From the NCBI GenBank assembly GCA_045837725.1, contig JBEWZL010000282.1:1-64000 (forward strand): 64,000 nt of DNA, written 5' to 3'. Positions 371 to 50,700 of this stretch are shown here, piece after piece; the stretch's first letter is position 1, and every line of letters begins with the position of its first letter. The position numbers were made by a program, and so were the translations under genes. The stretch comes from Vermamoeba vermiformis (lineage: Eukaryota). The notes under the pieces were generated by a model. It did not search any database. It saw nothing but the letters and a program-made list of their open reading frames with translations, and was not told the DNA's origin.

Positions 371-1052
371 TCAATAATTCGGTACTTGTAATTGGCCGTA
401 AGGCCCCCCCCGTCCCCCTGGCGGACGGGGTCTTATTAAATAAATATACCCCCGTCCCCTTGGCGGACGGGTATCAACCAATTTTGTAATTTGCGGATTT
501 CTGAGGCTGAACCTGAAAGGTTAGGTACTACTTTCCAACCTGACCTCAATGCGGAATCAGCCGCACGACGTTGCTGATACTTGTAATTGGCTTTATGCCC
601 CCCCCCCATCCCCCTGGCGGACGGGGTCCTATTAAATAAATATACCCCCGTCCCCCTGGCGGACGGGTATCCATCAAGTATTTCAAGCCCAACATACCTG
701 AGGCTGAACCACACAGGTCAGGTATAAAGTAAGCACCTAGTGAGGTTGAGGTTGTGCATTAGCATTGAGTATGTACCTGATGCTGAACCTATCAGGTTGA
801 GGTATTTGCTACAAACCTGATGCAGGAGGTAAAGGTACATGACAGCGATCCCGAGGTGGATACAGCACCCCCCCGTCCGCCAGGCGGACGGGTCCTTATT
901 AAATTAATATACCCCCGTCCGCCAGGCGGACGGGTATCCATCAATTTTATAACTGGGTATACCTCAGGCTGAACCTGGCAGGTTAGGTACTATTTACTTT
1001 CCCAGTGTAGCATGGGTTGATAACGTGCCCCCGTCCACCTGGCGGACAGGGT
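330..1052. repeat. Degenerate tandem array of about 200-270 bp units carrying GC-rich hairpins
   Basis: Seven CCCGTCC-N7-GGACGGG stem-loops (~408, 451, 604, 647, 872, 914, 1030), six of them paired across a TATTAAAT(A/T)AATATA spacer. Four copies of CT(G/C)A(G/T)GCTGAACC-N-AGGT(T/C)(G)AGGTA (~501, 698, 777, 963). Two copies of GACCTC(G/A)ATGCGGAAT(T/C)AGCCGCACGA (~332, 542). Confidence 0.9.
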
Positions 1053-1254
1053 CAGTTATCAACTAAGGCACCAATTTCCCAGTATACAGGCTACTCCAAA
1101 CATCTTGTTTATTTAATGTCCATACATTGGCCATGGATGGCGGCTGATTTGTACAAATGTTTGATTGGCCTCTATGGCTGACTTGCCTCACACCCAACCG
1201 CAGCCCCACCAGCCCTAACCCTAAAGGGTCATGATAACTAGAGCTAAAAAACTT

Positions 1255-1665
1255 ACAGGACAAGTCTGCACAGATCCAGGTCTCATCCTGGGGCACGAAG
1301 AAATTTCAGCTACACAAGTCTGGTAATGGTTTTCAGACCAGATCTTTGCATTACCTAATAAGGAATTAAATGGATCTGGCTTAGACCACTTAATTTAGAC
1401 TTACCAATCAACTCGATAGACTCTCTAGGTGATGGTAAGCACCTGCTATCACCATGAAAGCATTCTGTGCAAACTTTTCTAAATTTGAATTTCTCATCAG
1501 ATTAATTTAGAAATTAGTAAAAATTAATGGGAAGTTCTAAAATTTCATTCCTTACCCTTGTTTCACTTCTAATAAAATTGCCTTCACTTGTAGAATATTC
1601 CCTTAAAGCCACTCCTCAGAGAACACCCACCATAAGCTCCTGGACCTCATCCCCTGCAATCCAGC
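1255..1665 (-). pseudogene. Possible decayed spliced gene relic
   Basis: Three consecutive blocks on the minus strand are bounded by ag/gtaag splice signals with intron-sized gaps, but no frame stays open across all of them. The region is CpG-depleted. Confidence 0.25.
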
Positions 1666-1825
1666 TGAGATGTGAAAATATAAATATTTTGACGCCATGG
1701 ATAGCTTAAACAATGGTATTGCTAATGAGGAATCTGCTGGAGGATCTGAATAGATCTAGCACCAAAAAACGGTCATTTTTGCTTGAACCAGCCCTGGGGG
1801 GTTTGTGGTCAAAATTTGGCCATAC

Positions 1826-1965
1826 CATATGCTGTTATAGCATATGCTTTCAATAACAGCACATGCAGTCATGGAAAAAAATAGGGCATCATGGTCTTCA
1901 ATAATGGCACGTGCTTTTGTTGCAAATAATAGCATATCATATGCTAAAAAATAGCATATGCTAAT
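1826..1965. repeat. Cluster of short AGCATATGCT-type palindromes
   Basis: CATATGCT-GTTAT-AGCATATG (1826-1846), AGCACATGC (~1858), GGCACGTGCT (~1906), AGCATAT-C-ATATGCT (1931-1945), TAGCATATGCTA (1952-1963). Confidence 0.6.
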
Positions 1966-2703
1966 AAACGTAAATTCCGGAGTGCCAACTTCTTCCTACC
2001 AATCAGCCAGTAGATCCAGGATCTGGTCTAAATAATGTGCCACTGCTGACAACCCTATACTTTCCCAATTGCTGTGACTTTACTAGGGATATATTCCCCC
2101 TAGTATAAAGATGCAAATTGGACAAATAAAACATTATGCATAAAATCTTACATGTAAAAGGCTTTTTTAACAATTTAACCAATTCTGCCTCATTAATTAA
2201 TTTGCTGACCGAGTCTATTTGCACACTTGGCTCACCTTCTGCACTTTGTGCCAAAGTCTGCAGCAGTGAGCCAAGACACGCAAAGAATCAACGTGGCAAA
2301 TCTGATAAAAAGAATTTGCATCAAAGAAAGCCCAATTGGAGTGACAAAAAAGATTAGTAGAGCTTTGATAGTGCTGCAAGATCTCGACAACAGAGGCTGT
2401 AATATCAATTCAGTTGCTCTCCTAACCAAGCCCTTTATTTACTCCAATAGCAATGCACCTGGAAAGGAGCATTCATTTCAAAAGGTCCACCCAATTCAAC
2501 AATGTTCAGCACTGACAAAAACAGTTCAATTTAAATTAAATCTAAATGAAAGAACAAAAATAAAATGCAACTGGGTGGTACTGCATTGTTCTATGTAGTG
2601 CATTATGGCACAGGGTGTGCTGTAGCTGGAATATTTAACCTGCTATTCACAGCTATAACATTAAACAAGGCTGACAGGTAAGGCTTCACAGTCAGCAATA
2701 TGT

Positions 2704-5700
2704 TTATTTCTTCTTTTTGAAATTAAATTCAATTTGCAACAGGTATTTCAGCTTGACTTGAGCTGTGTCATATACAATGAACTCATTGTACAACAATTCA
2801 CTCTTTTTCACTGCCTCTGACTTCACACATTTACCAAATGGCACCACAACATCACCATCAATTGTCTTTGTGTGTGCATCATCTGGGATTGTTGTTCCTA
2901 CACCTTTGGTACTATCATAGCCTGTTAAAACACATCAATATGGAAATCATTCACCCCCCAAGTTAACTTACCCTTTGGTGGTTTGTCCATGTACTTAGCT
3001 TTCTTTAATTCATACATTTCACCCAAGGCCACTTCTGCAAGCAGCATCAATGCCACAGGGCTGTCTTTGTTTGCGTGACAGTAATTGGCACTCTTTGAAA
3101 CCAAATCAGCGAAGTAGAGGCCTTTGCCAAACATATAGCCTGTAACTGGAGCTTCAGGCGGTGCAATACGAAGACCCTTGATGTATGTGTTACTACCGTA
3201 ATTGGTGGATTTGATTGCGACATACCTGCGAGAGAATGCCAACAAAGTTGGTTAATCTGCTGCCGTGCCACAGCAGCATTTTGTTTTTCAATTTTTCGTA
3301 CTTCTTGTAGTTCGTTGCTTCATTGGCACGATCAACTTTAAACACCTCTTTCACTTTCAGCGTATAATCTGTATGCGTTGGTGCGTGCGTATTCTTCACA
3401 TATTCTACGATCTAGTAATTTTAGGTTAAATTTAACGTCACGCTATTGAGTAGGACTCTCTATTACCATTTGGAACTCATCCGAGTCATGATCAAGCGGC
3501 TCCATGGCGCAATTAAGCTTCTTGTAGTGACTCTCTAGCGGGTCATCAGTATCGTCGTCCGCTGAGCGCAACAACGTAGTGGCAATTTCCATCTCCAGCA
3601 ACGAGTAGATCAAATCGACTTTCTCTTGCAGCTGCTCTTGGCTGTCAATAATAGTGGGATTGTCCATGCCAAACGAATGCGGGATCAGTGTGTAAAATCT
3701 GTTCGTAGCATCTGTACGTGGTTAGTACCTTCACAAAATCAAGGCAAGTCACTTACCGACAAACTTGGCTTTCGGTGCGTTGCCTTGCTTAATTAACTCT
3801 TGAATCTCGGTAAGCACCTTGTAACCTTCCATCAAATGGCTTTTGCTCAATTTGCCAAGCGGCATCTGTATTGTGTTAAGCTATCAAATCACTTCACTTA
3901 AACTCTACGCACCTGTTGCACGTCAATCTCCATTTCTAGGAGTGCACGCTTCATGGCTCTGCAAAGTGATTTAATATAGCGCCGCATTAAATCAAAGTCA
4001 CGTACTTGGTATCGAACATCAGCTCGATGAGCGAGGCTAATCGCTGATCTAACTGCGACTTTAGACTTGTCGAATTCTTTTTCTTTGATCTCTTCATCTT
4101 CTTTTTTCATTCCAAAATCGAGTTCGATGGGATAAAACTTTCCTGGCTGCTTGACGAAGTTCTTTCTATTACTCCATTCGTTTAAAGTCTTCTCGTAGTA
4201 CAACTTTTCGAAGTTCTTTTTAGCCGCTGCCTTTGTTGCAAACTGCTCTAGCTTGTTGCCGCCAATAGTCGTGCCTACTCTGCCCCACTTACGGAACACG
4301 TACCACTTGTTGCCATTGTCTTCTTCTAGCAGCTGCAGAGCATAATACGAGTTTGTACCCTTCATAATGTCTGCGCGCATGGTAATTACTAAATACCGCC
4401 GAAAAATTGAAGCTTACCAGTCAAATTCAACATAACGTTGAAAATATCTGACTTTTCTTCCAACACGTGACAGTCTTCGTCGCGACCCGAGTCAGGATCT
4501 ACAGCGGAATTGCCCTTGATTTTTAACTTCTTCTTTGTCGGGTCGCCTAAGAGACATCAGTGATGATGCGCAAATGTACGCGTAGCATTGCATTACATAC
4601 CTTCGCCCTCATCTCCTTCGCCAGCCTCCCATTTCTTTTGCAAACTTCCTTTACTCGAAGCACCGCGTTTGAGCTTCGGTTTCTCCGCTGGCTTGTCTTC
4701 TTCGACCACTAATTTAATCGGCTCGCTAGGTATCCACTGTCGCGGCTTGCCAAAAAAGGTGTATTTCTAATTCGAAATGAGTACACGCCGCTAAGCTTTG
4801 ATCGTTGCTACCTTTTGATCACAAGCCTTGCCTTCTTTAATGGAGTCATAAATGTATTGTTCTTTGTACATCGGAATATTTAACTGCACGGCGGCTTTGA
4901 ACTTGGCGGGTTTGGTTTGCTCGAACAAAATTTTCATGTCAGCAATGACGTGCGATACGTGGCGTTCTAACATAAGGGTGAGCACCGTTTGAATGGAAAA
5001 AATTGAGCTATTGCTTACCAATCGTCGTGCTGTATTGTCCTCCGTATTTGCGAATTAGATTTTTAACTTCTTCTCGAGGTCTAACAAAGAGCAATGTTAG
5101 CTACGAGACAATTCGAAATACAAGTCACGTACTTAGAGAGTTTGCCAACAATAGCGAACACTTGGTCTTCAAATATTCGATCGAGCGGCTTTTCTTCGTA
5201 TTTAATTTCCATCTCCATTTCTGACTCCTGAGTTTGATTGTTATTGTTGTTATTGTTGCTGACATTAGACGTTGATTTGTTGAAGTTCTTATCGAAGTCA
5301 TCGGGCAATTTCGGAATTATTTTTTTCAGCATTTTACGCTAATCTTTACGTTAGTACACGATAGCACAACACTCATTTCATTATAACGAACGTACTTGTT
5401 TAAATTTGAATTTTGCAAGCCATTTGTCGTCAAGCTCTTCTGGATCTGGCATCAGCCACTCAGTTCTTTTAATATCCTTCGACTTGAATAGACACCTAAG
5501 ACGGTCATTGTTACATTGATTCGATCGTGTTGCCTTTGACTTACTTGGACCAGGCCGTTGATCCCGTGCACGCATACTCCTCTCCGTCGAGGCACACCAA
5601 ATCACCGTCGCCGCACTCGGGACACTTTGGCGTCGCACCAAACAACATTCCAGCGGCACAACGATCGACCAATTTTTGAACTCCACCGTGCGTGGGTTGA

Positions 5701-6492
5701 TTGTTTAGCTCGAGCATGTACCTGAATTAATGAGTGCGTGAGTTACCTAACGAAAGCAGGACTTACTTCAAAGTATCGTTTTCGACCTTCTTCAACTTAT
5801 CTTTCAAATCCCACAATAACTTGTTTTCCTCGGCAAGTGCTTTCTTGTATTCCTCGTCCTCTTCGTCTCCTTCGTCGCCATTCAATTTCTGTTTTTTGAC
5901 AACTTTGCCATCGAGTTCATCTTCTGCAGCTCGTTTTTTACCCTTATATATGAACTTAAAACATATTATGGCACGGTATTAAACGTACTTTTCCGTGCGT
6001 TTCCTCGATTTTTTCTTGCAATTTTTGTTGATCCGCCCACCGCAGCTTGTTGAAGCCTAATTTGCGTTTGTAAGAATTAACACTAACAATATATTCACAA
6101 AATATATTACCTGAAAACAATCCAACGTCATAAGCAAGCTTTGACCACGACTTGAAGAAGCAGTCCCAATGATGCCAGATGGGAAACTCGCCGTCGAATT
6201 TTGAAGATTGAACCATTTTTCCTAGGCGAAGCGCTTCTTGTTTAATCGGTTTGTTGCATCCTTTTTCAAAATTTTAGTCGGGTATCGTAAAATTAATATA
6301 AAATATTAATTTAATTTCCTGGAACACGTAGTATGGTGCAATGCACTTATTATTATTGTACACAATAGTATTGCCATCTTACTATTTTTTGAAAGCTTAA
6401 TTGCGGATGGGCTGTCAAAAATTACCTTTACACGTTGAGCGGCCACTGGCCGCGTATTCTATCTTGAACGGCCGCTTAGTAGTTGCGTCCAT
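2704..6492 (-). CDS. PARP1: Poly(ADP-ribose) polymerase 1-like (zf-PARP, PADR1, BRCT, WGR, regulatory and catalytic domains), multi-exon
   Basis: Starts [22 protein letters not shown]. Motifs [15 protein letters not shown] (WGR), [25 protein letters not shown] and [10 protein letters not shown] give an intact H-Y-E triad. One apparent +1 frameshift at ~4060. Confidence 0.95.
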
Positions 6493-6673
6493 GTATTATG
6501 CGCCTGGAATTAATGAACAAAAACAAATGCGGGCTTGTGTTCGTGCCAACAACAACAATGGCGCCAAATTGCAAGTTCTTTCACCCCATTTTTTGACCTG
6601 ATCAGATCGCAAGAACGAACTCATTAAATTAAGTTAAGAGTTATATGCGATGTTTACAAATTAATTTGCTTTA

Positions 6674-22665: not shown

Positions 22666-25029
22666 ATGAAGCCTATAAAATACACGTACGCATCTCCAAA
22701 GCGAAAGAGGTCAGAGCTGCTTCCAACAATAAGCGCAATAAGTGTGGAGCCAATCCGCACTTCTACTACTAATAAACCTGAAATCACGGCCAGAAAGGGA
22801 CTAAAAAGGAGTTTATCTGTAAGTTATGCCGATTGTAAATTAAAACCTGGCTGACTGGCAGTTACAGGCAGATTCGGATGTCGTAGAACGCTTGTTAAAG
22901 AAGCGAAAACAGGAGTTTGATACCGTGGATCAAGTTAGTTTAGTAGAGGAGAAGAGGCACTTTGAATTAGAATACGCTAAAGTCGATCTAGTAGAAGAAA
23001 ATCGTGGACCATTCTGGAACGACTTGCCGCTTGAGCTGTTTTCCAAAGTTGCCGAGTTATTAACGCACAGCGAAATTGTTTCGTTGGCTACAGCGTGTAA
23101 GTTGATTATTTGGTGTTGCAATCTTCGATCTAATTGAGTTGCTTGGGCAGGTAGGAGCTCATCTCAATTACTTCAAATGGAAGAGCTATGGAGACGATTT
23201 TATTTTGAGTATAATTGGAAATTAGATGATCATATTAAAGAACAGAAGGAATTAAAGAAAAACGGTCCGCCAGAGCAAGATTCAGATCAAGCCAACTTCT
23301 GGCGCAGCAAGTATAAACAAACGCACGTCAAAGAGTGGATGAAAGAACGAACAAAAACACCCGTTAGAACGTATTCGAAACGATTTCAAATAATTTCACC
23401 AACAAAACCGCGAACTTTATCAAGATCACTTTCCGATCTGCACAACAATAGAAAATGGAGGATTTTAGCGATCAACGTGAATACAAAAGGACAGTTAGGC
23501 CGAGCAGATTGACAAAGTTGTGCTTGAAATGCATCAAAAAGCACCCTGAAGCTGTCAAAAATAAGATCTTCGCGCATCCGCTGAATAATAAAATTCTAGA
23601 ATTTTTGTTTACTACGCGGGAGATCATTACGGTTGAAGACATCAAAGGAATACTGTTTTCCATCGAGAAATTAAATTTTACAGAGTATGTAGTGAAAGTC
23701 TTATTAATTTCTCAATGTTCACAGTATAAATTAATCCTTCGAACGTTTTGCAATGCAACTATTAACTCAATATTACATAGATCAATATTTGAGCCATTAG
23801 AAGTCCTTGAAGAGTTATCGAAGAGATCTTCGTTCATTAAGAAACTTCATTTGGGCGGTGTGCCGTACGATGATGGCAATCTTAATGTCAGTGCTGCTAA
23901 TTAATCGGATATTAAGTTTTTAACGTACCTTTTAAGGCCCTTGCTGAGGTAGTTGAAAAGTTTCAAACCGAAGAACTCCAAGTGACAGTTCAAGCCAATT
24001 CTGCAGGCGAAAAGGTGCTGAAACGATTGAATAAAAGAATCAACAAATTGACTCTTGGTTATGGTCCGATTGAAGGTGCGTTAATTGCAGCTCCGTAAAA
24101 AAACTAATTTGAAACAGGCGATTTCATGCACAAGCTTCAATTCTACTGCCCTAATTTGGTTAAAATTGACTTTGCCAATGCCTCTATTACTGGTTTACAG
24201 TAAGTTAAACTAAAGCAGACAATAGTTTGCTTTGGCTCTAACAGTCTTTGAAAGATTACATCCGCTGTTGGACATGCCTTCAGTGGCCTCTATTAAAGCC
24301 TATTCGTGCACACTAGACGACACATTCGTCACCCAACTTTCACTGAAAAAACCGTTCTTGAAAGAACTGTTCATTTGCTGGAACGAGTGCTCTATTCGCG
24401 TGTCATCATTTATTGGCTTTAAAGGTACTAAGACGATTATAATTCAATATTATTAACTTACTGCTAGAATTGACGAGTTTGGCATTGAGTTACACACCAC
24501 TAGTCTATGATGTGGATCTGGCATTTATTTTGGAAAACAATCCAAATCTCAAGCACTTGGTACGGTGGTTATTAGTATTTTGAATCGTATTTATAATGAA
24601 CAAAAGATTTTAACCAAATGCGGCCTGAGCGAAGTGACGTGCAAAGTATTGTCAACATTGACCAAGTTAGAAGAGTTGATCATTCCCGAAACGCTTCTGT
24701 TCACCGAATATTTTAAACACTTAAGCAAATGCACCTCGATAACTAAACTAGTACGTATCACCGCAACATTCGATCATTTGACTAATCTTTGACAGAATAT
24801 CTCCGACGTGACCCTGATCAACGATGACATGTGCCACTTCATTCCATCATTGCCGCGGTTATCATCGCTCGAAATAGATTCAGTGGCCTTCTTCGAAAGT
24901 CCAGAGTGCGGTGTAGCTCCGTCGTTGAAAACAATTGTGACTCGACCAAAGTTCAAATACGACTTACCGAGCTTGCTGAAGAAATGTCCAAATTTGGAAA
25001 AAATCATTGTAGAAGAGCCTGATTTCTAA
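22666..25029 (+). CDS. F-box and leucine-rich repeat protein
   Basis: F-box WNDLPLELFSKVAELL...SLATAC...ELWRRFY followed by LxxLxL repeats ending LLKKCPNLEKI. Start codon uncertain (22546 or 22666). Confidence 0.75.
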
Positions 25030-32000: not shown

Positions 32001-32421
32001 CTTCAGTTTGAACCCCGCTCCTAGTTTCATGCCGACATCTGCCTGTAAGCTTTGTCACCGAAATTTTATTGATTCAATTTCATCATTAACGTGTGTCTAT
32101 AGTCAATCGTTTCAATCACCATGAAATGTATATGGGTCAATCTGCTTCAGTTCCTCGAGAATGGAGAAAGATGCCAGCAGGATATCACATGTATTTCTAC
32201 GACGCACTTGTCAATGATGACGTGAGTACCTCTGACGGTCTTCAAGCTGCAGCGACATTGTACGAGAGTGCTATTGGCGTATTTGGCTCGGTAAGTTTGA
32301 GGGTACTTTGCTTGTCACATCCACTCTAACTGATGATTTTTAGTTCACTCAAAGATCAGCTGCCTCTGTTACCACTATTTCGAGCTTGCTTATTGTTGCC
32401 ATGGGTGTACTTCTTTTTTAA
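29075..32421 (+). CDS. Secreted, probably GPI-anchored peptidase S41 family protein (paralogue 2)
   Basis: Signal peptide MKSSVVLSLIFECLFVSLIVA, then LNDAHTWY, VVDVSGNGGG, VTDGTCGSACSLF, FAGGNV. C-terminus SAASVTTISSLLIVAMGVLLF. Confidence 0.8.
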
Positions 32422-32548
32422 TTTTAGATAAAGTACAAACGGTCAATTTAACTTCTCCAGTTTATGACTTGATTTGCAGTCAGAGATAGATGATAGGCAG
32501 GTTGTGACCACACCACTATTAAATCTAAAAAACCCTGCACTTTATTAT

Positions 32549-34490
32549 CTAATCATCAAAAAGGGATTTGACATTAGCATTTAAATCACTAAATAATTTG
32601 GAGTGCAACTCTTGCAAGAATGGAACTATCTGCAGATTGATCACACCAGAGTAAATAATTGCTTCCCATCCATGCAACATTGACTCTTCCTTGAGCTTGG
32701 CCACATTTGTTTTGTTCTTCTCTTTTGACCATGGCAAAGAATTCTCATTTGCCAAGTACAGTATAACATAAAACAGTGATTCAAAGTCATCTCGCTCTTG
32801 GTAAGTATACTCACTTGTATCATTGAGATGTTGAGATACATTGATTGATGCAAACATCAGAGTGCCAGTGAGACCAATAATCGACTGGTCACGTTGAATA
32901 GCATAGCCCCAATCAATAAGAATAGGTTGTGTGCCATGCATGACTATATTTTTCAGTGAAATGTCAGCATGAAAAATGTTGTTCTGATGTGCATGAACTA
33001 GAGCCTCATTCACTGCTTTGGTAAATGACACTAGGTCACCAACTGCTTCTACATCACAAATAGGAGCTCCTTTAGGATAAGTTATCACAAAGGGATATCC
33101 TTCAACTGGAGTAACTCCACTGGCAAGTAAGACAGGTATTGACAGGGGCCTGATAATGATTGTTAACTCTTTTCATAAACTCAGTTTACATACAGTTTCT
33201 CACTATCCAAGCTATGATTTTGGAGGAGTTATTGCAGACATGCAAGTGAGTTAATCTCCTTCTCAATTTCACTGTTTGTTGCTTCTAGTGGACTGTACTT
33301 CATAATCACTTCAATTTTTGCATTTCTTTGCTGTTCTTTGCTGGAGTGCTTTGGGTTCTCAACAAAGGCACTTGCTACCGTGGGTTGTTTTGCCCCTCCA
33401 CTGATGATGTCATTTATCTGAAACAAACATACAGGGCTTGACCATGATGAATGATAGTGCTTTGCAGAAAAAATTCCATGCTCATTAATTTGAATGGATG
33501 ATGCTGGAATAAAGCCAAGCTTGTTTGCTTCAGTAAACATAAATTGCCACACTAATGCAGAGCCTAAAACAAATGTCAGCCAGATATTGTTATCTATGTA
33601 CTGTTACCTTCTTTCCAACCCACAGGGTATGTTTGGTAAATGTGTACAAACTGCTGGCCTGGTTTGTTGAATAAAAACTTGTGAAGAATACACATGTCGG
33701 TTGGTAATGAAAGCATAAAACTCTGTTCTTTCAGGCTGCGCTTTTCTGAGCTCCATAATGTGGGACACAGCTTTGCCTCGTGCATTATTTAGTTGTTTGT
33801 CTAACTTAATGCACATCACTCCAACAATTGCACTGGCTACAACAGCATTTGTGTACCGACTTTGTTCAACAAACACTAGGTCAGGTATGTCATTCATGCC
33901 ATAAGTTGGAGTCTTATGAGTATTGACAAAGCAAAGCAGGCTGTCCTTATGTTGAAAATGGTCGACAATAAGGGCTTGCAGATCATCTTTAATTTTGAGA
34001 GGCAGATCATTGGCAATTTGCAAACCCATAGTACCTTCACGTGAACCAGTAAAGAGGCTTCGACGTGCTTCATGATCATTGACGTGCAAAAATTTGTTAG
34101 CATTATTTGCGACTTGAGCTGAAGAGGATCTGGTCAGTTTGAGTTCTTCGACATCGGCTTTTAGTTTTGCCAGCTCTTCGTTCCAGCTAGTTCCTAGCGC
34201 AGCGTTAATTGTTGTCAAATTATTCGTGCCGTACCTGATTCACTCTGTGGGTTCTGCGGTTTTTTGATCTTGGCCCACAATTCTCGAAGCAGTGGTTTTG
34301 GAATGGAGTTATCAAAATCAGACAACAAGCAATCCAATCCGTCTTTTGATCCATACATTAGAAGGCGTTTCCCGTTCACGACTTGTGCAATCAGAATTTC
34401 CGCGCTTTTTGCAGGCCAGAACAAGACTTTGCGCGCCCAAACAGCCACCTGCTTTGGATGCCAATCGGGCTTTGGTAGGGTGTCGTTCAT
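32549..34490 (-). pseudogene. Crinkler (CR)-effector-like gene: SAM-like header, REase-like domain and FunK1-like kinase; disrupted
   Basis: Header WHPKQVAVW...ILIAQVVNGKRLL; nuclease-like IPDLVFV...VMCIK; kinase HADISLKNI, LIDWGYA, GTLMFAS, DDFESLFY. In-exon TAA at 33229-33231 and a frameshift near 33700. Confidence 0.7.
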
Positions 34491-35154
34491 TACATTATAG
34501 CGTGCCCATGCCTCCAGTTGCTCGTCAGACCAATGTTCAACTTTTTCAATAATCGCATCTGCTTCAACATTAGTAAGTTAAATCACCTTAGAAATAGGGC
34601 TTAATTAAATATAAATTTCGGGTTTTCGGTTAAATAGAATTTCTCGTGAAGACGTTACTCTAATGCTAAGATCGAAGATCTAATTTAATTCGTTTGATCC
34701 AGTGCAATCAGGCGTCATAATTAATTTCGGCAGCACTGACCATTAGGTCAATTAATTAAAAATCAAGTACCGTTTTCCTCCATGATCTGTTTATAAAATA
34801 AGAAATTAAAATTACAAGACTTCTGGCTTAATACGACGTTTGAAAGAATATTGCTTACCTCGAACAATGGCAAATAATAATATTTAGGCATTTGCCCGTG
34901 CGAAGAATCTGCAATTTTCGCTCAGGATAAAAAATCTCGGGAGTGAGCTCGCAGGATCCAACGGGATCTTAAACTTGTCCCATTTGAAACGGAATAGTCT
35001 GGTGTCATTTGATAGTATCTATCCAATCGTTTGATATGACCAGTTTGTTCACCTCCGTTCCGAGGTAATTTCTATGTGAAATCAAATTTGTTATTTTTTA
35101 TTCGTTTAAGCAAGCAGAGACGAGACGACTTGAATTTTTATTAATTTAAAAAGC

Positions 35155-38100
35155 ATGACGTCGAAGCCTCAGCTTAATATCCGCGCTAAGGCCTTATATA
35201 AATTCGTTCCAGAAAACGAGGAAGAGCTAGATTTAAATGAAGGCGATATAGTTGTTATTTATGAAAAGCATGAGGACGGTTGGTGCGTGGGTAATTTTGA
35301 TGGCAAAGTTGGCTATTTTCCAGCAGCGTATGTAGAAGAATTGCCACCTCCTCAACCGAGGCCAGTGAAAGCAGCTCCATCCACTCCAAAGCTCACAGAA
35401 GCACCTCCTTTGGAAATTAAGCAGGTCTCAACACCTGAAACCGCATCACCAGTCACAACACCGCATTCAGCGCGTCCAGCATCTAAGTCCACAGATGATT
35501 CAGGAATAAATACCAGACCGACAGGTTCTCCGCGACAGTTGCCGAATCCCGGTCATGGCACTATGCGCAAAGGTAATTATAATGATCCTTTATTAACTTG
35601 TAATTATTTAAATTGGTCTACTGGACAGGTTGATCAAAAATTAATTTGAAATTTAAATTTGAATAATAATTGACATAATTGCGCTATGCATCATTTTAAC
35701 TAGTGCGCTTGCAACCAATTGAAGCTTTAATAATCAAATTTTGCGCACGTGAAACGAAGATTTTTTTGGAGCACAAGCAGATCCGCCCATCTGACCTTTT
35801 CAAATTGAATCAAGGAACGAGCAAATTATTTACGTCGCGCTAATTATCTTCATTTGTCTATTTTAGTAATTTTGATCAATTTATCTACCCGTTAATTCCA
35901 ACGTAAACCTTTACAAGGTCCAATTTACTCTTTATTCATAATTTATGTATCCCCATATTAACTATGTATTGTTATTATGTTAATGCAGCATTGGGTAATC
36001 ATCAAAAAACAGCTTCGCTATCGTCGTTTGAAATGAGATCTGGTCCGCTCTCAGCGCCTGCCACGCCACAGTTGGACCGTGTGCCTGAAGGTTTGGTCGC
36101 GGAAAAAAGTAGCTCTGCCTCAAACTCGCCGGCCTTGCCGCCACGAATCACAAAAGAATTGCCCAAGCCTCCACCAAAGCCGCAACGACCGTTGTCAGGA
36201 GGCAAGACATCCGGTGAGAGCACTCCGCCACCGATACCTCCCAAGCGCGAACAAGGCTCCGTCTCACCCACTCAATCATTGTCGAGCTCATCGAGTACCA
36301 CTCCTGCTGCGAGTCCTCTGCAGAGACGCATGTCACGTGACTCGGATTCGTTGACAAGAAGCAACAGCGCTTCAATCAGTGCGCCGAGAATTGTGTTGCC
36401 GCCATCGCCTAAAACAATCACTCCCGAGCAAGGTAAGCAATATGATAGGATTAATATGACGCTACTAGCAATGGATAGTTTTTTAGATCTGGATCTGACA
36501 AAATCTTTTTTTTGTAGAGACGAAACGAGGCTATATCGCTAAAGAAACATATACTACGGAAGTTACTTATATAGAATGCATGGAAACAGCATTAACGGTA
36601 ATATATGAAATTTTAATTAGATTTTTGTTCCGTTGATAGCTAATTTTGGTTCGATCCAGAAATATTACAAGCCGTTGATAGAAAAATCTAAAAACGATCC
36701 CGCGATTAATGTTGATCATTTACGAAATATTTTCTCGTCATTAGAAAATATTATGCCGTTAAACAAGAAACTTTTGCAACGTAAGCGCGATCCAGATCTG
36801 GCACGAGAAAAACTCGAATACTAATCATTTAAATGTAGAGATTGAAGAACGTGTTAAAAACTGGTCTAATACCCAACTTATTGGAGACGTTTTCGTGTTA
36901 TTTGTAAGTATTGTCATCGATCAAAATGAAAGATTTTTTGGCAGGCGAGAAAAATCTAATTTAATTATTTTTTAATTATTTAGGCGCCATTCTTAAAATT
37001 GTACACTACTTATTCAAAAAATTATGAATCGGCTATTCAATCACTGGAAGCGATTCAAGAAGAAGAATGGTTCATTAAACAGTGCGAGAACAAGTTGTTC
37101 GTTGAAAAATTGATTATTACACCTATTCAACGTATTCCGCGGTACAGTTTATTACTAGAAGTAAGTAATATACTTAATTAAAGGTAGATGATGTTAATAT
37201 TAACCTTGTTTTCAGGATCTGTTGAAAAATACGGCCGAAGATCATCCTGATAGTCAAAATATCAGATCTGCTTTGATGACAGTCGTAAGTTACTAGTTAA
37301 TCAAGAAATGAACGTAACAATTATAATATTAACAAATTTATATTATAGAAAGAAGTAGCCGAGCATGTAAATAGCAGCATTAAATTTCACAAAAACGTCA
37401 CAAAATTGCACGACGCAGGTCTCGGTGTAAGTATAGTAATAGGGCTGCCCTAATAATATATTCCATTGACTAATGTCACGTGATTTTTCCTATTATAGCA
37501 CTTGTTGGCACCTCACAGACAAATGGTGCGTGACGCGACATTGAACGTGACAGTGCTCGGTGAGATTGTGAACGGCGTGATTTCCAGCAAAAAATCGAGC
37601 AAGCCGAAAGTGATCAAAGCGCATTTCATTTTGTTCAGCGATGTTTTGACTATTGTCGATGAACCTCTTGCTGAGCGTGCCCAATCAAAAGTAAGCAAGA
37701 AAAAATACCGAAATTTCCGAATTGATTTCTAATTGGTGTTACTAAATATAGGATAAAAAGAAAGGCACTTCTATAGCGAGCAAATTGACTGGCAAGAAAA
37801 AGACGCATTTTGGTGACATTTCGTGGCCTCTTTACCTTATTTGGGTAAAAGATTTATGTACGTACCGCAGGCCTCGATCTCTTTTTTCCACTTCAACCTT
37901 CCTAATTTGGAAATTATCTAGCGAAAACTGGCCTCGAAGTCATTGGTCCCAACACGTCATTTTTGCTGCAATTCGACAACGCCGACGAAAAATCAGAGTG
38001 GCAAGCTGACTTCCAGACATCGATTGAAGCCATCTTGAACGCGAGCGAGACTAACAACGGTACGAATATACTATAGGACTCACTTACTACATATGCCTAA

Positions 38101-43080: not shown

Positions 43081-46000
43081 ATGAGTAAACGGCACGCAGA
43101 TTATGAAGTTGATCATAGAGATAGCAAGAAGCCTCGGATTGACCAAGTAAGCATCATAATTAAGCTTCAAAATTGCATTTGCTAATTCAGGCAATTATTT
43201 AGAACGAAGATGTAACAATGTCGCTTGCCTTGAATATGGCAATCGAAGGTATTTATTGGTTTCAGATAATTTTCGTAATTTTTAAAAATACCAGGTTGTG
43301 ATTAAACTTTTTCTGTTTCAGATCCGCTCCATTTTGACATTGAGAGTCTTCCGTTAGATATCCTCGGCAACCTAATATTCAGATGTTTTCCGTTTGAGTA
43401 TTGGCTCCAAAATTTCGTTTCTGTAAACAAACGTTGGTACCAAGCCGCGATCCAATCCAGCGCCGAAAAGCAATTGATTATAAATGGAAACAACGAAAAG
43501 CAGATATTCAAGTGCTATTCAATAGCATCTCGGTTCAAAATTACGGCAGTTACAGTGACGAACGAAGCCCTGTCCGTCGGCCGTTTAGCCGCGTTACTGA
43601 ATTCCTCACCAAGACTTCACACGTACGCACAATTCCGCGGAAGTGACAGTGATTCTATCAACATAACATTTCCGTTCATGAAAACGGTATACGGGCACAG
43701 CTCTTGGCTCAAAAGATTTCCAAACGCGACGCGAGTTCAATTAATTGACAGTTTCTTCGACTTTCATTCGCAGTTCCCAAGCGTAGAAGAACTAGCCATT
43801 AACGAAACTGACGACATTAAGCAACTATTAACGACTTTCCCGTCGCTAAAAGTATTGCACATCGCTGAAATTTCCAAAGAGCAACTAGACGTGATACCTT
43901 CGACCATTCAAGTTTGTCTCACGCCGTCAACAGATGACAACAGAAATTGGTGGAAATATTATTCGTACGATCAAGTATGGGGAAATGATTACCTCAGAAC
44001 GCCGTTAGAGTACCTAATGACTATACACCAAGATGATAGCAAAATTGAAGAAACTGCAAAGCGAACCTCAGTAGAATACGAACGCAACATAAAACGCCGC
44101 TGCTACGAGTATAAATTTCCGCTAGTTTCTTTAGATCCAACTACAAGTTCTTTACTTTGTTCTTCAGATGTGCTGAAGCATGCTTGGTTCGACCTTTACA
44201 GCGCACCAGATGACCCAAAAAAACTACGACTTTACGCCACTTACATGCCGCCAATGGATGCTCTACGAATGCTAATGAAGAAAAATCAACAGCAACTCGT
44301 TGATGAATTTCTAAATACACATTCAAACGAACTGTTCGAAGAAATGACTCCAGATCTGTTCTCCGAATTAGTCTTATCTTGCGATGCAACAAAGTTGAGT
44401 CAAGCATTCACACGAGAACAACTGGCGGAGATCATGAAGCGTAAAGACAGTAACGGAACATTGGCAATATACTTAGTTTTCGAAAACAAAAGTCCAACAG
44501 TTCTATTGCAGGCCATCAAGAACTTTGGAGAGTTGCCGAGTGACTGGCCAGTAGATGGTACAGTGTTTGATATCGCCGCGGACAGAAGAAGTGTGGATTG
44601 GATGAAGTTTTTAATCACGACAGGTGTCAAATTTGATATTACAAAGATATTCAAAAGGCTTAAACCGATAGAAGACCTGTCCGATCTTCAAGAAATTATA
44701 CGTTCAATCGATAAAGAGAAAGCTTACGCGGGCCAAACAAACTGGCTATTTGACTCAGATTGGTGGCAAACAGGCGCGATTAGCGCAAATCTGATCGATT
44801 TTTTTGTCAGCGAATTCAAATATGATCTTAACACAGCTAAACAAGAAGACGAAGAAAACTCGAAAAGACAATCATTTATGCTCCATTTAATGCATGCTGT
44901 AATTAAGGACGATACCTACACTGGCTTAAGTACGCTTAGTACCATCGTTAAAAAATACAACCTTGACATCAACCAACAAGATGAGGACGGCGAGACACCA
45001 ATACTTGTAGCAATAGATCGATACAGATTATCGGAGCTGAAGTGGCTTCTCGACAACGGTGCGAAGCCTTCTTCACCCAAAGGCACACAACCATTGCACG
45101 TTGTGATGTCAGTGCCAAAAAAAGGCCCCCGCAGACCCAGCTTGGAGACGCTAGAATTTGCAGATATTTTGCTTGCATATGGCGCTGACATTAATGCGTA
45201 CAGTTTTTACGACCACAACAAAAAACAAGCTACAGCGCTGATGAATGCAGCGAAAAATAATCAACCGATTGAAGTCATTGAATATCTGATTGCACGTGGT
45301 GCTAGGACTGATATGACAGGCAGTCGCGGCCAGACATTAATTCATTATGCAGTTCGTTCACAGAACCCTGATTTGATTAGATTCTTTGCCAAGTACGTTG
45401 ATATCAACAAAGTAGATGACGAGAACTGTTCTCCGCTTCACCTGGCTGGAAAGTATCAAGAAACAGAATCCTTCACAACGCTTTTGAAACTCGGTGCAGA
45501 CGTCAATCAAGTTCGACGTGGTCTCACGCAGTTAATGCGAGCGTGCTTGTGGGGCCATTATGCACTGATAGCAGAGCTGATCAAATTTAACGTGAATTAT
45601 CAAGCGGTTAATGAACAAGGTCACTCGTTTGTGCACTTTTTATTGAAACATCAACAACAAGGAAATGGAATTAGCCTCAACGAATGTACGTAGATAATCG
45701 TTATTTGTAACTGAAACGAAACGAGACTAATTCATCTACTTATAGCTAATTTGCTTGTGACGATTAAAGAGAGCGTTGCAACAATGAAAAACGAAGACAT
45801 CAAATTCATTATCGGTGAAGTGAAGAAATACCTGGAAATGGCTAAACAAGACCAGACATTATTCATGAACATCTTCCGCCTATTGCAGATCACACGTGAT
45901 TTTAGCGGAATTTCTCATCGAACACGTGGGTCTTGATATCAACACTCAGGACTTGACCGGCAATGTCTTGTTGAGCTATCCGATGGACAAAGAGGTATTA

Positions 46001-47786: not shown

Positions 47787-50700
47787 ATGAGAAAAAGACG
47801 GGCTACCAGTGATAATAATCGTCGCAGTAATAAAAAACGCAGAACAGATAACGTATGTGGAGCTCGATCTTTTGTAACGGTAATTTTTTTCTTAATTTAA
47901 AATTCAGAATGAGGAAAAAATCGCTCTTTGTCTACAAATACGACCATGGAAGGTATATTTCATATTTTTAGCTATTTTTGAATTATTTTAAAATTAATTC
48001 GGATCAGATCCCCAATCCTTTGAAATGGCGAATCTTCCCTTGGAGATTTTAGGCAACCTAATATTCAAATACTTCACCTTCGACTATTGGCTTAAATCTT
48101 TGAGCTATGTCAGCAAGCAATGGTATCAAGCAGCGATCCAATCAAACGCAGACAAGCAATTATTTATTGTTGCCCCGAAGGAGAGCGAACTTCACAAGTA
48201 TTATATCATAGCAGCGCGATATAAAGTCACTGCAATTATATTGAGGCTGATCAACAAGATATCTATTGGTCGGTTAGCCGGACTTCTCAGTTCCTCACCA
48301 AAGCTTCATACTTTCGTGTATCCGCAGCATGATGTCTTGGGCGCTTACTCCAAACACTCTACATTGAAATTTCCCTTCATAAAGACGGCGTTTGTGCACA
48401 GCAGCTTACTCACGAGGTTTCCCAACGCAACTCGGGTACAACTGGCGGATGACAGCGTCTTTTGGGACTCAACGGAGCTATTTCCGAATGTAGAAGAGTT
48501 AGCTGTTCAAAAAATAATAGATACAATGCCAAGCATATTAAAAGGATTCCCGTCACTCAAAGTACTGCACATCGGAGAGATAACGGACAAGGACAAGAAA
48601 TTAGTTCGGAAACAACAAGTTGAAGTTAGGATCAGTTCCATGGAAGACAACAAAGATTGGCGAAAATATTATTCACTCGATCAATTATGGGGATCTGATC
48701 TATATTGGTCGCTAATGGAACACGCTACGGAATGTTACGTGACGAAATACACAGCGAAAAAACCGCATCCGTCAGTAGAATATGAAATCGGATTATTAGA
48801 GCGCCACGAAGATTATCAGTTTCCAGCAATTACAGATTTCATTCCAGACGTATTTTGTCGGCGCAGATCAGTAGCTTGTTCGACGGCAGAACCACCAGTC
48901 TATTTTTGCAAACACTTAGCATTAGAGTTTGAACTGACGCATATGCTCCTTCAAGAAGACAAAAAAGGCATTAAAAGACTGCTGCAAACAAAATCTCAGC
49001 AATTATTCAATGCTATGAAACCACCCGTATTCGCCGGTTTGATTAAAATTGTTGCAGCATCGGAGTTGAAGAAAGTTTACAGCAAAGAGCAATTAGAACG
49101 CATGATGAAGCTTCGTGATCACAATGGAACGATAGTTCAAAGTTTCATCGCTCTGAATTATGACACGGAAGATCTCGACAAAGCGATCGAAAATTTCGGG
49201 CCTTTACCTGAAGGCTGGCAGACCGTAGAAACGAACTCAAAAATCTCATTAGTCCAATTAGCGGGAAATCTCGAGAGATATGATTGGATCGAGTACCTTG
49301 TCAATAATGGAGTCAAAATCGACATCACCAAATTCTTCCTACACGCCTCCAACGAAGCAGAAGACGATAATATGAGAAAAATTCAAAATATAATTCGGTT
49401 AACTCACAAAAAGAACGCTTATTTGACGAAAACGAATTGGCTCTTCGACTCAGATTGGTCAATCCTAGAAACGGAATCAAAGATACAACTTATTGATTTT
49501 TTCGTGGAAGAATTCAAAATCAATCTCAACGAAGCTAAACAAGACGATGAATTCAATGCTAACTGCGAAATATCGTTTGTTAACCATTTGATCGAAAGCA
49601 TGTGGTCAACAGATCTGGAATTATTTAATCACGTCTGGGAGAAATACAAACTTGATATTAATAGAATTGATGGCAATAGATTAACACCATTATTAACGGC
49701 AATACAACAGAGGATGCCGGATATAGTTGTTTCGCTGCTTGAAAAAGGCGCGGCAACAAATTTGCCGAAAAGTAATCTGCCGTTATATCTCACAGTTGCA
49801 GACCTCAAAAAAGATGTCTATGAGTATATAGATACCTTGCTAGCATATGGCGCAGACATCAATGAATATTGCGACGATGATGTTGAAGGATGCAGCGCCA
49901 CAGCATTATTGATGGCTATTGATAAGAACCAGCCATTAGGAGTCATCAAATATCTCATTGTACGAGGAGCAAAGGCAGATCTAGTTGACAGCGATGGTCT
50001 TACTGCGATGCATTACGCTGCCATTAATGGAAGACCGGATCTGGTGCAATTCCTCGCCAAGTACGTGGACGTCAACAAAGTCGATAAAGAGGGCACGTCG
50101 GCACTACATTATACCGTCGATACATATGTGGACAGTCTCGCAACTATTGAAGCACTTTTGAAGCACGGAGCGGACGTGAATCAAGTTGACGAATCGTCAA
50201 TGACTCCGTTGATGAAGGCGTGTTCCAGGTCTCGAATAGAAACTATTGAAGAACTTTTAAAACACAACGTCGATATCAAAGCACGTGACAGAGATGGAAG
50301 GTCTTTTGTGTACCACTTGGCTCGTAATCTGAAAAATGCCCAGAAGTTCAGTTCGAAAGGTATGCGATCCCAATAAGCGAATACATATTAATTACTACGT
50401 TTAGAACAATTGCTGAAGAAAATTAAGCACCTAATGACCGACGATAACATTGCGTTTGTTATTGAAGACGCTAAGCAAGTGTTAGCACAAGCCACAAAAG
50501 AATCAGGCATACTTTTGAATAACATCTTCAATCTGTGCACATCGTCACTGTTCTTTGCGGAATTTCTCATCGAGCACGTGGGCTTCAACATCGACACGCA
50601 AAACTCCAAGGGTGATGTGTCGCTGAGCTATCCGATGAACAAAGATGTGTTCGACTACTTGATGACGAAGAACCCGAACGTTAATATACAGAACAGTAAG

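Follow-up and report, generated by a model that had tools for sequence, protein, structure and literature searches.

A 64,000-base stretch of Vermamoeba vermiformis DNA (contig JBEWZL010000282.1, hereafter the window; 41% G+C, with 2997 CpG dinucleotides at an observed/expected ratio, o/e, of 1.11) contains two sharply limited islands from which CpG has almost vanished. Island 1 begins downstream of the PARP1 gene and reaches into its 3′ exons; island 2 lies over most of a predicted kinase gene. The pattern in both is one of in-place C-to-T change at CpG, and we posit that both islands probably record CpG cytosine-5 methylation (5mC) that was kept for a long time within an otherwise unmethylated genome and decayed under purifying selection, a reading made from the DNA letters. 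The depleted segments are the following.

1044..3073, no strand: CpG-depleted island 1; 13 CpG in 2030 bp, symmetrised CpG o/e 0.17, TpG/CpA o/e 1.39, GC 0.391
2386..3073, no strand: CpG-free core of island 1; 688 bp, 0 CpG
32382..34039, no strand: CpG-depleted island 2; 10 CpG in 1658 bp, CpG o/e 0.16, TpG/CpA o/e 1.52, GC 0.384

Outside both islands the window has a CpG o/e of 1.16, 0.0493 CpG per bp and a GC content of 0.412. At this background rate island 1 would hold 100.1 CpG instead of 13 (Poisson P 6e-28; the survivors are at 1141, 1199, 1296, 1414, 1693, 1770, 1910, 1969, 1978, 2210, 2279, 2292 and 2385), island 2 would hold 81.8 instead of 10 (P 1e-23), and the probability of finding no CpG in 688 bp is 1.8e-15. 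The longest CpG gap of the window, 689 bp, lies between 2385 and 3074; with both islands and the hairpin repeats described below excluded, the longest is 144 bp. Given the background CpG rate, the right edge of island 1 lies at most about 61 bp from 3074 (95%). Seven of 128 segments of 500 bp have a CpG o/e below 0.3, every one of them in 1001-3000 or 32501-34000, and the next-lowest, at 501-1000, stands at 0.60. The first-pass annotation of this DNA had described a CpG void at 2401-3060 with about a dozen CpG in 1080-2400, abundant TG/CA, and a CpG-rich state farther up the gene at 3541-3600; its counts are borne out by those given above, by a TpG/CpA o/e of 1.39 in island 1 versus 1.08 in the background, and by five CpG at 3541-3600 (3553, 3556, 3560, 3567 and 3575). 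A CpG profile of the window confirmed island 1 and added island 2, which that annotation did not contain.

The missing CpG are accounted for by their deamination products. Background segments of 2 kb have a summed CG, TG and CA fraction of 0.180 +/- 0.011; the sum is unchanged in island 1 (0.1725) and in island 2 (0.1865), and the drop in GC content, from 0.412 in the background to 0.391 and 0.384, matches the CpG loss. ACG, CCG, GCG and TCG are all reduced in the islands and ATG, CTG, GTG and TTG all increased. Among the other dinucleotides, the largest shift of a symmetrised ratio relative to the background is 0.36 in island 1, for CC/GG, and no more than 0.12 in island 2. Within the islands the depletion takes in exonic and intronic sequence as well as intergenic DNA, and in both a CpG deficit is matched by a TpG/CpA excess whatever the coding status, as in CpG decay driven by 5mC. 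The earlier proposal of a CpG-to-TpG/CpA mutational scar inside an intact gene is thus supported, by the constant sum of CG, TG and CA and by the synonymous shifts in PARP1 set out below. Two sites in island 1 are polymorphic in the direction expected from such decay: (i) at 2941, where the window has T, the other haplotype of a DNA run with the same species label (X1) has C, forming a CpG, at a depth of 482 of 757, as does a metagenome strain (X4) at 2.5 of 2.5; and (ii) at 2836 six of six RNA reads of a divergent lineage (X19) carry G, which forms a CpG with C2835.

PARP1, the gene that island 1 enters, is collinear with P0001, a 940-residue Vermamoeba vermiformis protein (EukProt accession).

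2704..6492, minus strand: PARP1 gene; resembles P0001 across its zinc-finger, BRCT, WGR, helical and catalytic domains
2704..2921, minus strand: last PARP1 exon with the stop codon (2704-2706); 0 CpG; carries a 10-residue motif
2922..2971, minus strand: last PARP1 intron; 50 nt, GT..AG, 0 CpG
2972..3176, minus strand: penultimate PARP1 exon; island edge inside, with 0 CpG in 2972-3073 and 4 in 3074-3176

P0001 has the domains PF00645, PF08063, PF00533, PF05406, PF02877 and PF00644, and the window gene, judged by its likeness to this protein, has the architecture of orthologues, in which zinc fingers and BRCT at the N-terminal side precede the WGR and catalytic domains. The Pfam PARP family matches the last two exons at E 3.9e-29 and 6.2e-15 and the WGR domain is matched at E 1.4e-21; over the last two exons 62 of 71 and 67 of 69 residues are identical to P0001. 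A 19-residue motif and the 10-residue motif are identical to those of P0001, which upholds the statement that the catalytic residues, presumably the His-Tyr-Glu of PARP1, are intact. The depletion does enter the gene, as had been claimed: the last exon, the last intron and the 3′ 102 nt of the penultimate exon are devoid of CpG, whereas the 5′ 103 nt of the same exon retain CpG at 3074, 3110, 3159 and 3169, and the coding DNA upstream of 3074 carries 5.77 CpG per 100 nt.

The CpG void in PARP1 is not an effect of amino-acid content. When 57 codons of the last exon were resampled synonymously from 664 in-frame codons of the CpG-normal PARP1 exons (115 CpG in 1992 nt, taken from tblastn columns), 9.6 +/- 2.2 CpG were expected, and none of 20,000 draws gave zero. 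With a second reference for codon usage, 21 long open reading frames (ORFs) of the window, the last exon is expected to hold 11.7 +/- 2.6 CpG and the depleted part of the penultimate exon 4.0 +/- 1.7; each has 0. The third codon bases have shifted as deamination predicts. Ahead of a codon that starts with G, C is the third base in 0 of 21 cases among the CpG-free codons versus 58 of 210 in the CpG-normal exons (P 0.003), and T in 13 of 21 versus 54 of 210 (P 0.0015); among NCN codons, the final base is G in 0 of 7 (6 of the 7 end in A) versus 41 of 114 (P 0.09). Nor is the depletion a property of this coding sequence, since the 3′ ends of distant PARP1 genes are not CpG-poor: in 35 metagenome loci (L001-L034 and L050) the last 370 nt have a median of 0.94 of the upstream CpG o/e and a minimum of 1 CpG. 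These 35, whose matches reach within a few residues of the C-terminus, were taken from the top of the list of 80 loci of a metagenome scan, to which the locus of best identity was added; the best of the 80 is only 61% identical in its best segment. Loci so distant do not allow a comparison of synonymous sites and served only as a control for 3′-end CpG. At the protein level, the last exon (2707-2919) diverges from P0001 more (9 of 71 residues) than the CpG-normal exons do (19 of 447; P 0.008). We discount this raised divergence as evidence of CpG decay, as none of the 9 changes is CpG-type and this part of the protein is a variable loop.

The locus is continuous across the island edge, and the depleted exons are expressed. 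A contig of the X4 strain, assembled from a water metagenome independently of the window (record 10, 2925-3125; one other letter, one gap), spans the edge at 3074 with 149 letters on one side and 52 on the other, which excludes the chimeric join that the first-pass annotation had named as a way in which its reading could fail. A near-identical strain (X7) has RNA contigs from which the predicted PARP1 introns have been removed; the last intron is among them (joint 2920 to 2971), although the shorter side of this joint has only 25 letters. In X1, all 30 bins are covered. The last PARP1 exon is identical there to that of the window, at a word depth (which is no measure of copy number) of 614.6, near the roughly 700 of the remaining gene, so that the CpG-free state is common to both haplotypes. 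The species label shared by X1 and X19 covers clearly divergent lineages: 59 of 59 X19 RNA-seq reads compared with the window at 1000-6600 are less than 95% alike and 53 of 59 less than 90%, and the exon differences between the window and X19, among the 40 of 233 listed, are mostly transitions.

Island 2 is a gene body and not the flank of a repeat, and it affords a second view of the same process. Two genes lie at this locus.

32549..34783, minus strand: predicted kinase gene; FunK1-like domain at the 3′ end; start codon and first mini-exon predicted from the sequence
35134..35646, plus strand: SH3-domain gene, in divergent orientation to the kinase gene

The 3′ exon of the kinase gene matches Pkinase_fungal at E 3.2e-13, and the Atlas clusters closest to it consist of FunK1-type kinases; an ORF piece that spans the island edge (33607-34239) has a sub-threshold match to DUF6826 (E 9e-5), and no relative of it was found among longer proteins in a word-index search, a negative of little weight. 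The N-terminal two thirds of the protein belong to no recognised family. The depletion runs from 34040 to about 110-170 bp beyond the stop codon of the kinase gene, so that its ORF pieces inside the island have 6, 1 and 3 CpG versus 24.1, 16.4 and 30.5 expected, whereas the 5′ ~750 bp of the gene (34040-34783) are CpG-normal, with 15 and 11 CpG versus 17.2 and 12.6 expected. The promoter region common to the kinase and SH3 genes (about 34800-35150) is CpG-normal as well. An exhaustive HMMER search with the kinase returned 333 relatives at E ≤0.001, three of them at 1e-30 or better; the ten best-scoring, which are the only ones traced, all come from metagenomic or Logan contigs. When the kinase exon is compared with the closest of these (P0125, 79% identical), the orthologue has CpG and the window TpG or CpA at 6 of 38 replacements, and 0 are of the reverse type, a class limited by the few CpG that remain in the window kinase. 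Three of the six are changes from Arg to Gln (CAA), and at two of these three sites Arg is kept in more distant relatives and is thus probably ancestral. No match of 364 aa or more to the kinase gene was found in the V. vermiformis transcriptome.

To the left of PARP1, island 1 occupies a stretch of apparently silent DNA that adjoins a hairpin repeat.

1044..2703, no strand: stretch downstream of PARP1; no family match, uneven X1 word depth
392..1053, no strand: hairpin repeat; four spaced copies, 196-267 bp apart, with GC-rich palindromes of the CCCCGTCCGCCAGGCGGACGGG type

The stretch yielded no Pfam family on its three longest ORFs, no Rfam match (the sole Rfam signal was a sub-threshold microRNA match within the hairpin repeat), no tRNA, just two tiny tandem repeats and no second copy within the window; its 129-aa ORF had no usable Atlas match and low recognition, and no RNA contig was placed on the stretch. 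Its X1 word depth is about 270-580 over most of 1374-2682 and rises to 1018 at 1935-2121 and to 4395 at 1000-1186, against about 700 for PARP1, and the X4 strain has no contig over 1561-2495, although holes in contig cover prove nothing. One X1 contig (depth 84) omits 268 bp at 1462-1731, and loose X1 ends at 1113, 1240, 1933 and 1976 run into related yet different sequence; the loose ends and the skipped 268 bp suggest that parts of island 1 vary in structure or occur again elsewhere. Judged by the word depths and the missing X4 contig, the stretch may contain repeated pieces and an insertion absent from some haplotypes. A telomere-like (CCCTAA)2 at 1213-1224 in island 1 was dropped, because 10 of 100 shuffles contain a match at one mismatch.

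The unit of the hairpin repeat consists of CCCCGTCCGCCAGGCGGACGGG palindromes, AT-rich spacers and a second conserved block running from CTGAGGCTGAACCTG to AGGTTAGGTAC; the copy nearest the island reads GGACAGGG, and at 1048 eight of eight X1 contigs have G. The family is probably dispersed, as the X1 depth at 1000-1186 is about six times that of PARP1, and its palindrome has 0 exact matches in IMG/VR. The first-pass annotation had methylation spreading from a silenced repeat or element on the left, but the hairpin repeat at 392-1053 is not itself CpG-depleted (the CpG o/e is 1.14 and 0.60 across 1-1000) and gives no sign of being a source from which depletion spread.

How could a few kilobases lose nearly all of their CpG and keep their genes? 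We posit that 5mC was held at both islands over the long term and that methylated C, by deaminating to T, would have turned every CpG unprotected by selection into TpG or CpA. At island 1 the methylated domain would comprise the apparently silent downstream stretch together with the PARP1 3′ untranslated region, last intron, last exon and half of the penultimate exon; at island 2 it would comprise the body and 3′ end of the kinase gene and spare the first ~750 bp beside the common promoter. The data show the pattern of mutation and where it stops, a PARP1 gene that is intact and expressed, and a locus that is physically continuous; from the CpG-specific transitions in all contexts and from established knowledge we infer 5mC as the cause, and the domains may be heterochromatin-like, with fixed edges. 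Open reading frames, surviving Arg codons and a purely synonymous loss in PARP1 together point to a slow process filtered by selection and not to a burst of the kind seen in repeat-induced point mutation (RIP), and for neutral CpG to disappear almost entirely, the domains and their edges would have had to stay stable for a long time. Candidate recruiters of methylation are a silent inserted element beside PARP1 and the lineage-specific kinase gene. A bolder proposal, to which we give little credence, is that small (~2 kb) methylated domains with edges fixed within tens of bases reflect maintenance-type epigenetic inheritance over evolutionary time, that they can cover the 3′ ends of essential genes which stay active, and that their placement might depend on something other than repeats, for example 3′-end or convergent transcription or hemizygous insertions.

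Several results weigh against long-kept methylation as the explanation. The depletion is strongest at the PARP1 end and not in the presumed source, and the outward spreading proposed in the first-pass annotation would lead one to expect fading, of which there is none: 2386-3073, on the PARP1 side, has 0 CpG, and the presumed source at 1044-2385 keeps 13. The searches of 1044-2703 described above lend no support to a transposon or viral remnant there, and the kinase gene has no detectable viral relative, the one IMG/VR locus that matched being rejected because the match covers only 21 residues. The depleted PARP1 exons are transcribed and spliced, a poor fit to methylation that is purely repressive. 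In island 2, 6 of 10 surviving CpG belong to Arg CGN codons, where they open the codon and a transition would alter the protein, versus 6 of 26 in the normal part of the gene; this enrichment, a sign of selection acting on a slow process, is borderline (Fisher P 0.053), and the share of CpG-type replacements in the kinase (6 of 38) does not differ significantly from that in the PARP1 control (2 of 19; P 0.71). Finally, a search of the literature on Vermamoeba found no study of its cytosine methylation.

The same observations can be read in other ways. A RIP-like burst, in which a DNMT-like enzyme hypermutates duplicated DNA and the sharp edges mark the ends of once-duplicated segments, would account for those edges and for the almost complete disappearance of neutral CpG, and the raised X1 depth at 1000-1186 and 1935-2121, with loose ends that betray related copies elsewhere, hints at repeats, though for 1000-1373 and 1935-2121 only. 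However, neither island has a second copy in the window, the last PARP1 exon, near full depth and without differences in X1, is not duplicated there, and every NCG context is affected with none preferred. Moreover, RIP mutates indiscriminately and inactivates reading frames, whereas PARP1 and the kinase gene retain open, conserved frames and the surviving CpG are concentrated in Arg codons; to our knowledge, RIP has been described only in fungi. We regard such a burst as very unlikely. An assembly chimera or foreign DNA, that is, CpG-poor segments joined to the locus by mis-assembly or transfer, would fit the abrupt change of composition inside exons, a word depth over 1374-2682 about half that of PARP1 and the lack of an X4 contig in part of that region, and part of island 1 may indeed be an insertion not carried by all haplotypes or strains. 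Yet the X4 contig bridges 3074, the last two exons are connected in an X7 RNA contig, the C-terminus that the CpG-free exons encode is that of native PARP1, and beyond CG, TG and CA the dinucleotide profile of the islands differs less from the background, by no more than the shifts reported above. This reading is largely refuted for the PARP1 part, and for the islands as a whole we hold it to be highly improbable.

Transcription-linked methylation, either across gene bodies or triggered at certain gene 3′ ends by convergent or read-through transcription, draws on the arrangement of the genes: each island covers the 3′ portion of a gene on the minus strand, with a plus-strand gene facing it, and in the kinase gene the 5′ ~750 bp are spared and the remainder is depleted past the stop codon, as in gene-body methylation. 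Convergent arrangement is not sufficient, however, because at least five other convergent sites of long ORFs (near 25000, 41800, 47500, 50900 and 59200) show no depletion, and the first 3.4 kb of PARP1 and every other gene of the window are CpG-normal. Methylation of the animal or plant type covers the bodies of many expressed genes; the window has two islands in 64 kb, and the kinase gene alone is spared at its 5′ end. In a comparative study (PMC12344493), gene-body methylation linked to transcription was reportedly not found in Acanthamoeba, Cyanophora or Naegleria, and we consider the idea rather unlikely here. Selection against CpG, for example on RNA and without a raised mutation rate, could in principle have shaped the synonymous sites, although nothing specific speaks for it; since the depletion extends to introns and to about 1.6 kb of DNA that appears to be untranscribed, and the exact balance between CG and TG/CA indicates mutation, we judge it extremely improbable.

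The rest of the window is unremarkable in its CpG content. Its long ORFs with a Pfam match encode ordinary proteins of the cell, namely HSP70, ankyrin-repeat proteins, a hexosaminidase, cNMP-binding proteins and the SH3 protein, and HSP70 and all other ORFs outside the islands are CpG-normal. None of the ten long ORFs scanned encodes a DNMT, and no viral insertion is evident in the 64 kb. Two intron-free plus-strand ORFs with C-terminal ankyrin repeats, at 43306-45690 (795 aa) and 47998-50373 (792 aa), lie 2.3 kb apart, are 40% identical over their full length and have CpG o/e values of 1.22 and 1.19; we considered these paralogues as a control for RIP and set them aside as uninformative, their protein identity being only 40%.

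Comparable footprints are familiar from other eukaryotes. In animals, CpG o/e serves as a proxy for historical germline methylation, and Arg CGN codons are the classic sites of nonsynonymous decay; the window resembles these cases in its CpG deficit, its TpG/CpA excess and its three changes from Arg to Gln, and it inverts the picture of vertebrate CpG islands, in that depletion is limited to two ~2-kb islands (o/e 0.16-0.17) on a background of 1.16. In fungi, RIP and the hypermutation of repeats at CpG or TCG are linked to DNMT-like enzymes; sharply bounded C-to-T conversion is common to these and to the islands, but here no duplicate was found in the window, the genes are intact, there is no preference within NCG and the organism is not a fungus. 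Two further comparisons come from unicellular eukaryotes. According to Sarre et al. 2025 (PMC12344493), 5mC in Acanthamoeba castellanii marks 381 genes (2.4%) and young transposons and co-localises with H3K9 methylation, and the methylated genes are mostly silent, often of viral origin and enriched in functions that include kinase activity. As in Acanthamoeba, a mostly unmethylated amoebozoan genome would have CG methylation at few loci, kinase genes included, of which only the footprint is seen here; unlike the silent Acanthamoeba genes, which are methylated over promoter and body, the islands include expressed PARP1 exons and spare the promoter-proximal ~750 bp of the kinase gene. According to Sarre et al. 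2024 (PMC11244446), Amoebidium appalachense, likewise a unicellular eukaryote that directs 5mC against genomic parasites, carries it on transposons and endogenised giant viruses; it belongs to another supergroup, and such insertions are not evident in our window. For V. vermiformis itself, a genome study (PMC11702301) describes wide variation in GC content at third codon positions and ascribes it to regional mutational bias.

For the biology of the organism, the two islands matter in several respects. Vermamoeba is a main laboratory host of giant viruses and Legionella, and if the footprint corresponds to live 5mC, it would join Acanthamoeba as an amoebozoan with targeted methylation. Segmentation of the genome by CpG o/e would then map its silenced compartment, including transposons, viral inserts and expanded kinase families, without a methylome. 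PARP1 would illustrate the mutational cost that such a domain imposes on a neighboring essential gene, whose synonymous CpG have all been lost and whose protein is unchanged at CpG-type sites, while in the kinase gene, which is under less constraint, decay of the same kind would have fixed changes from Arg to Gln.

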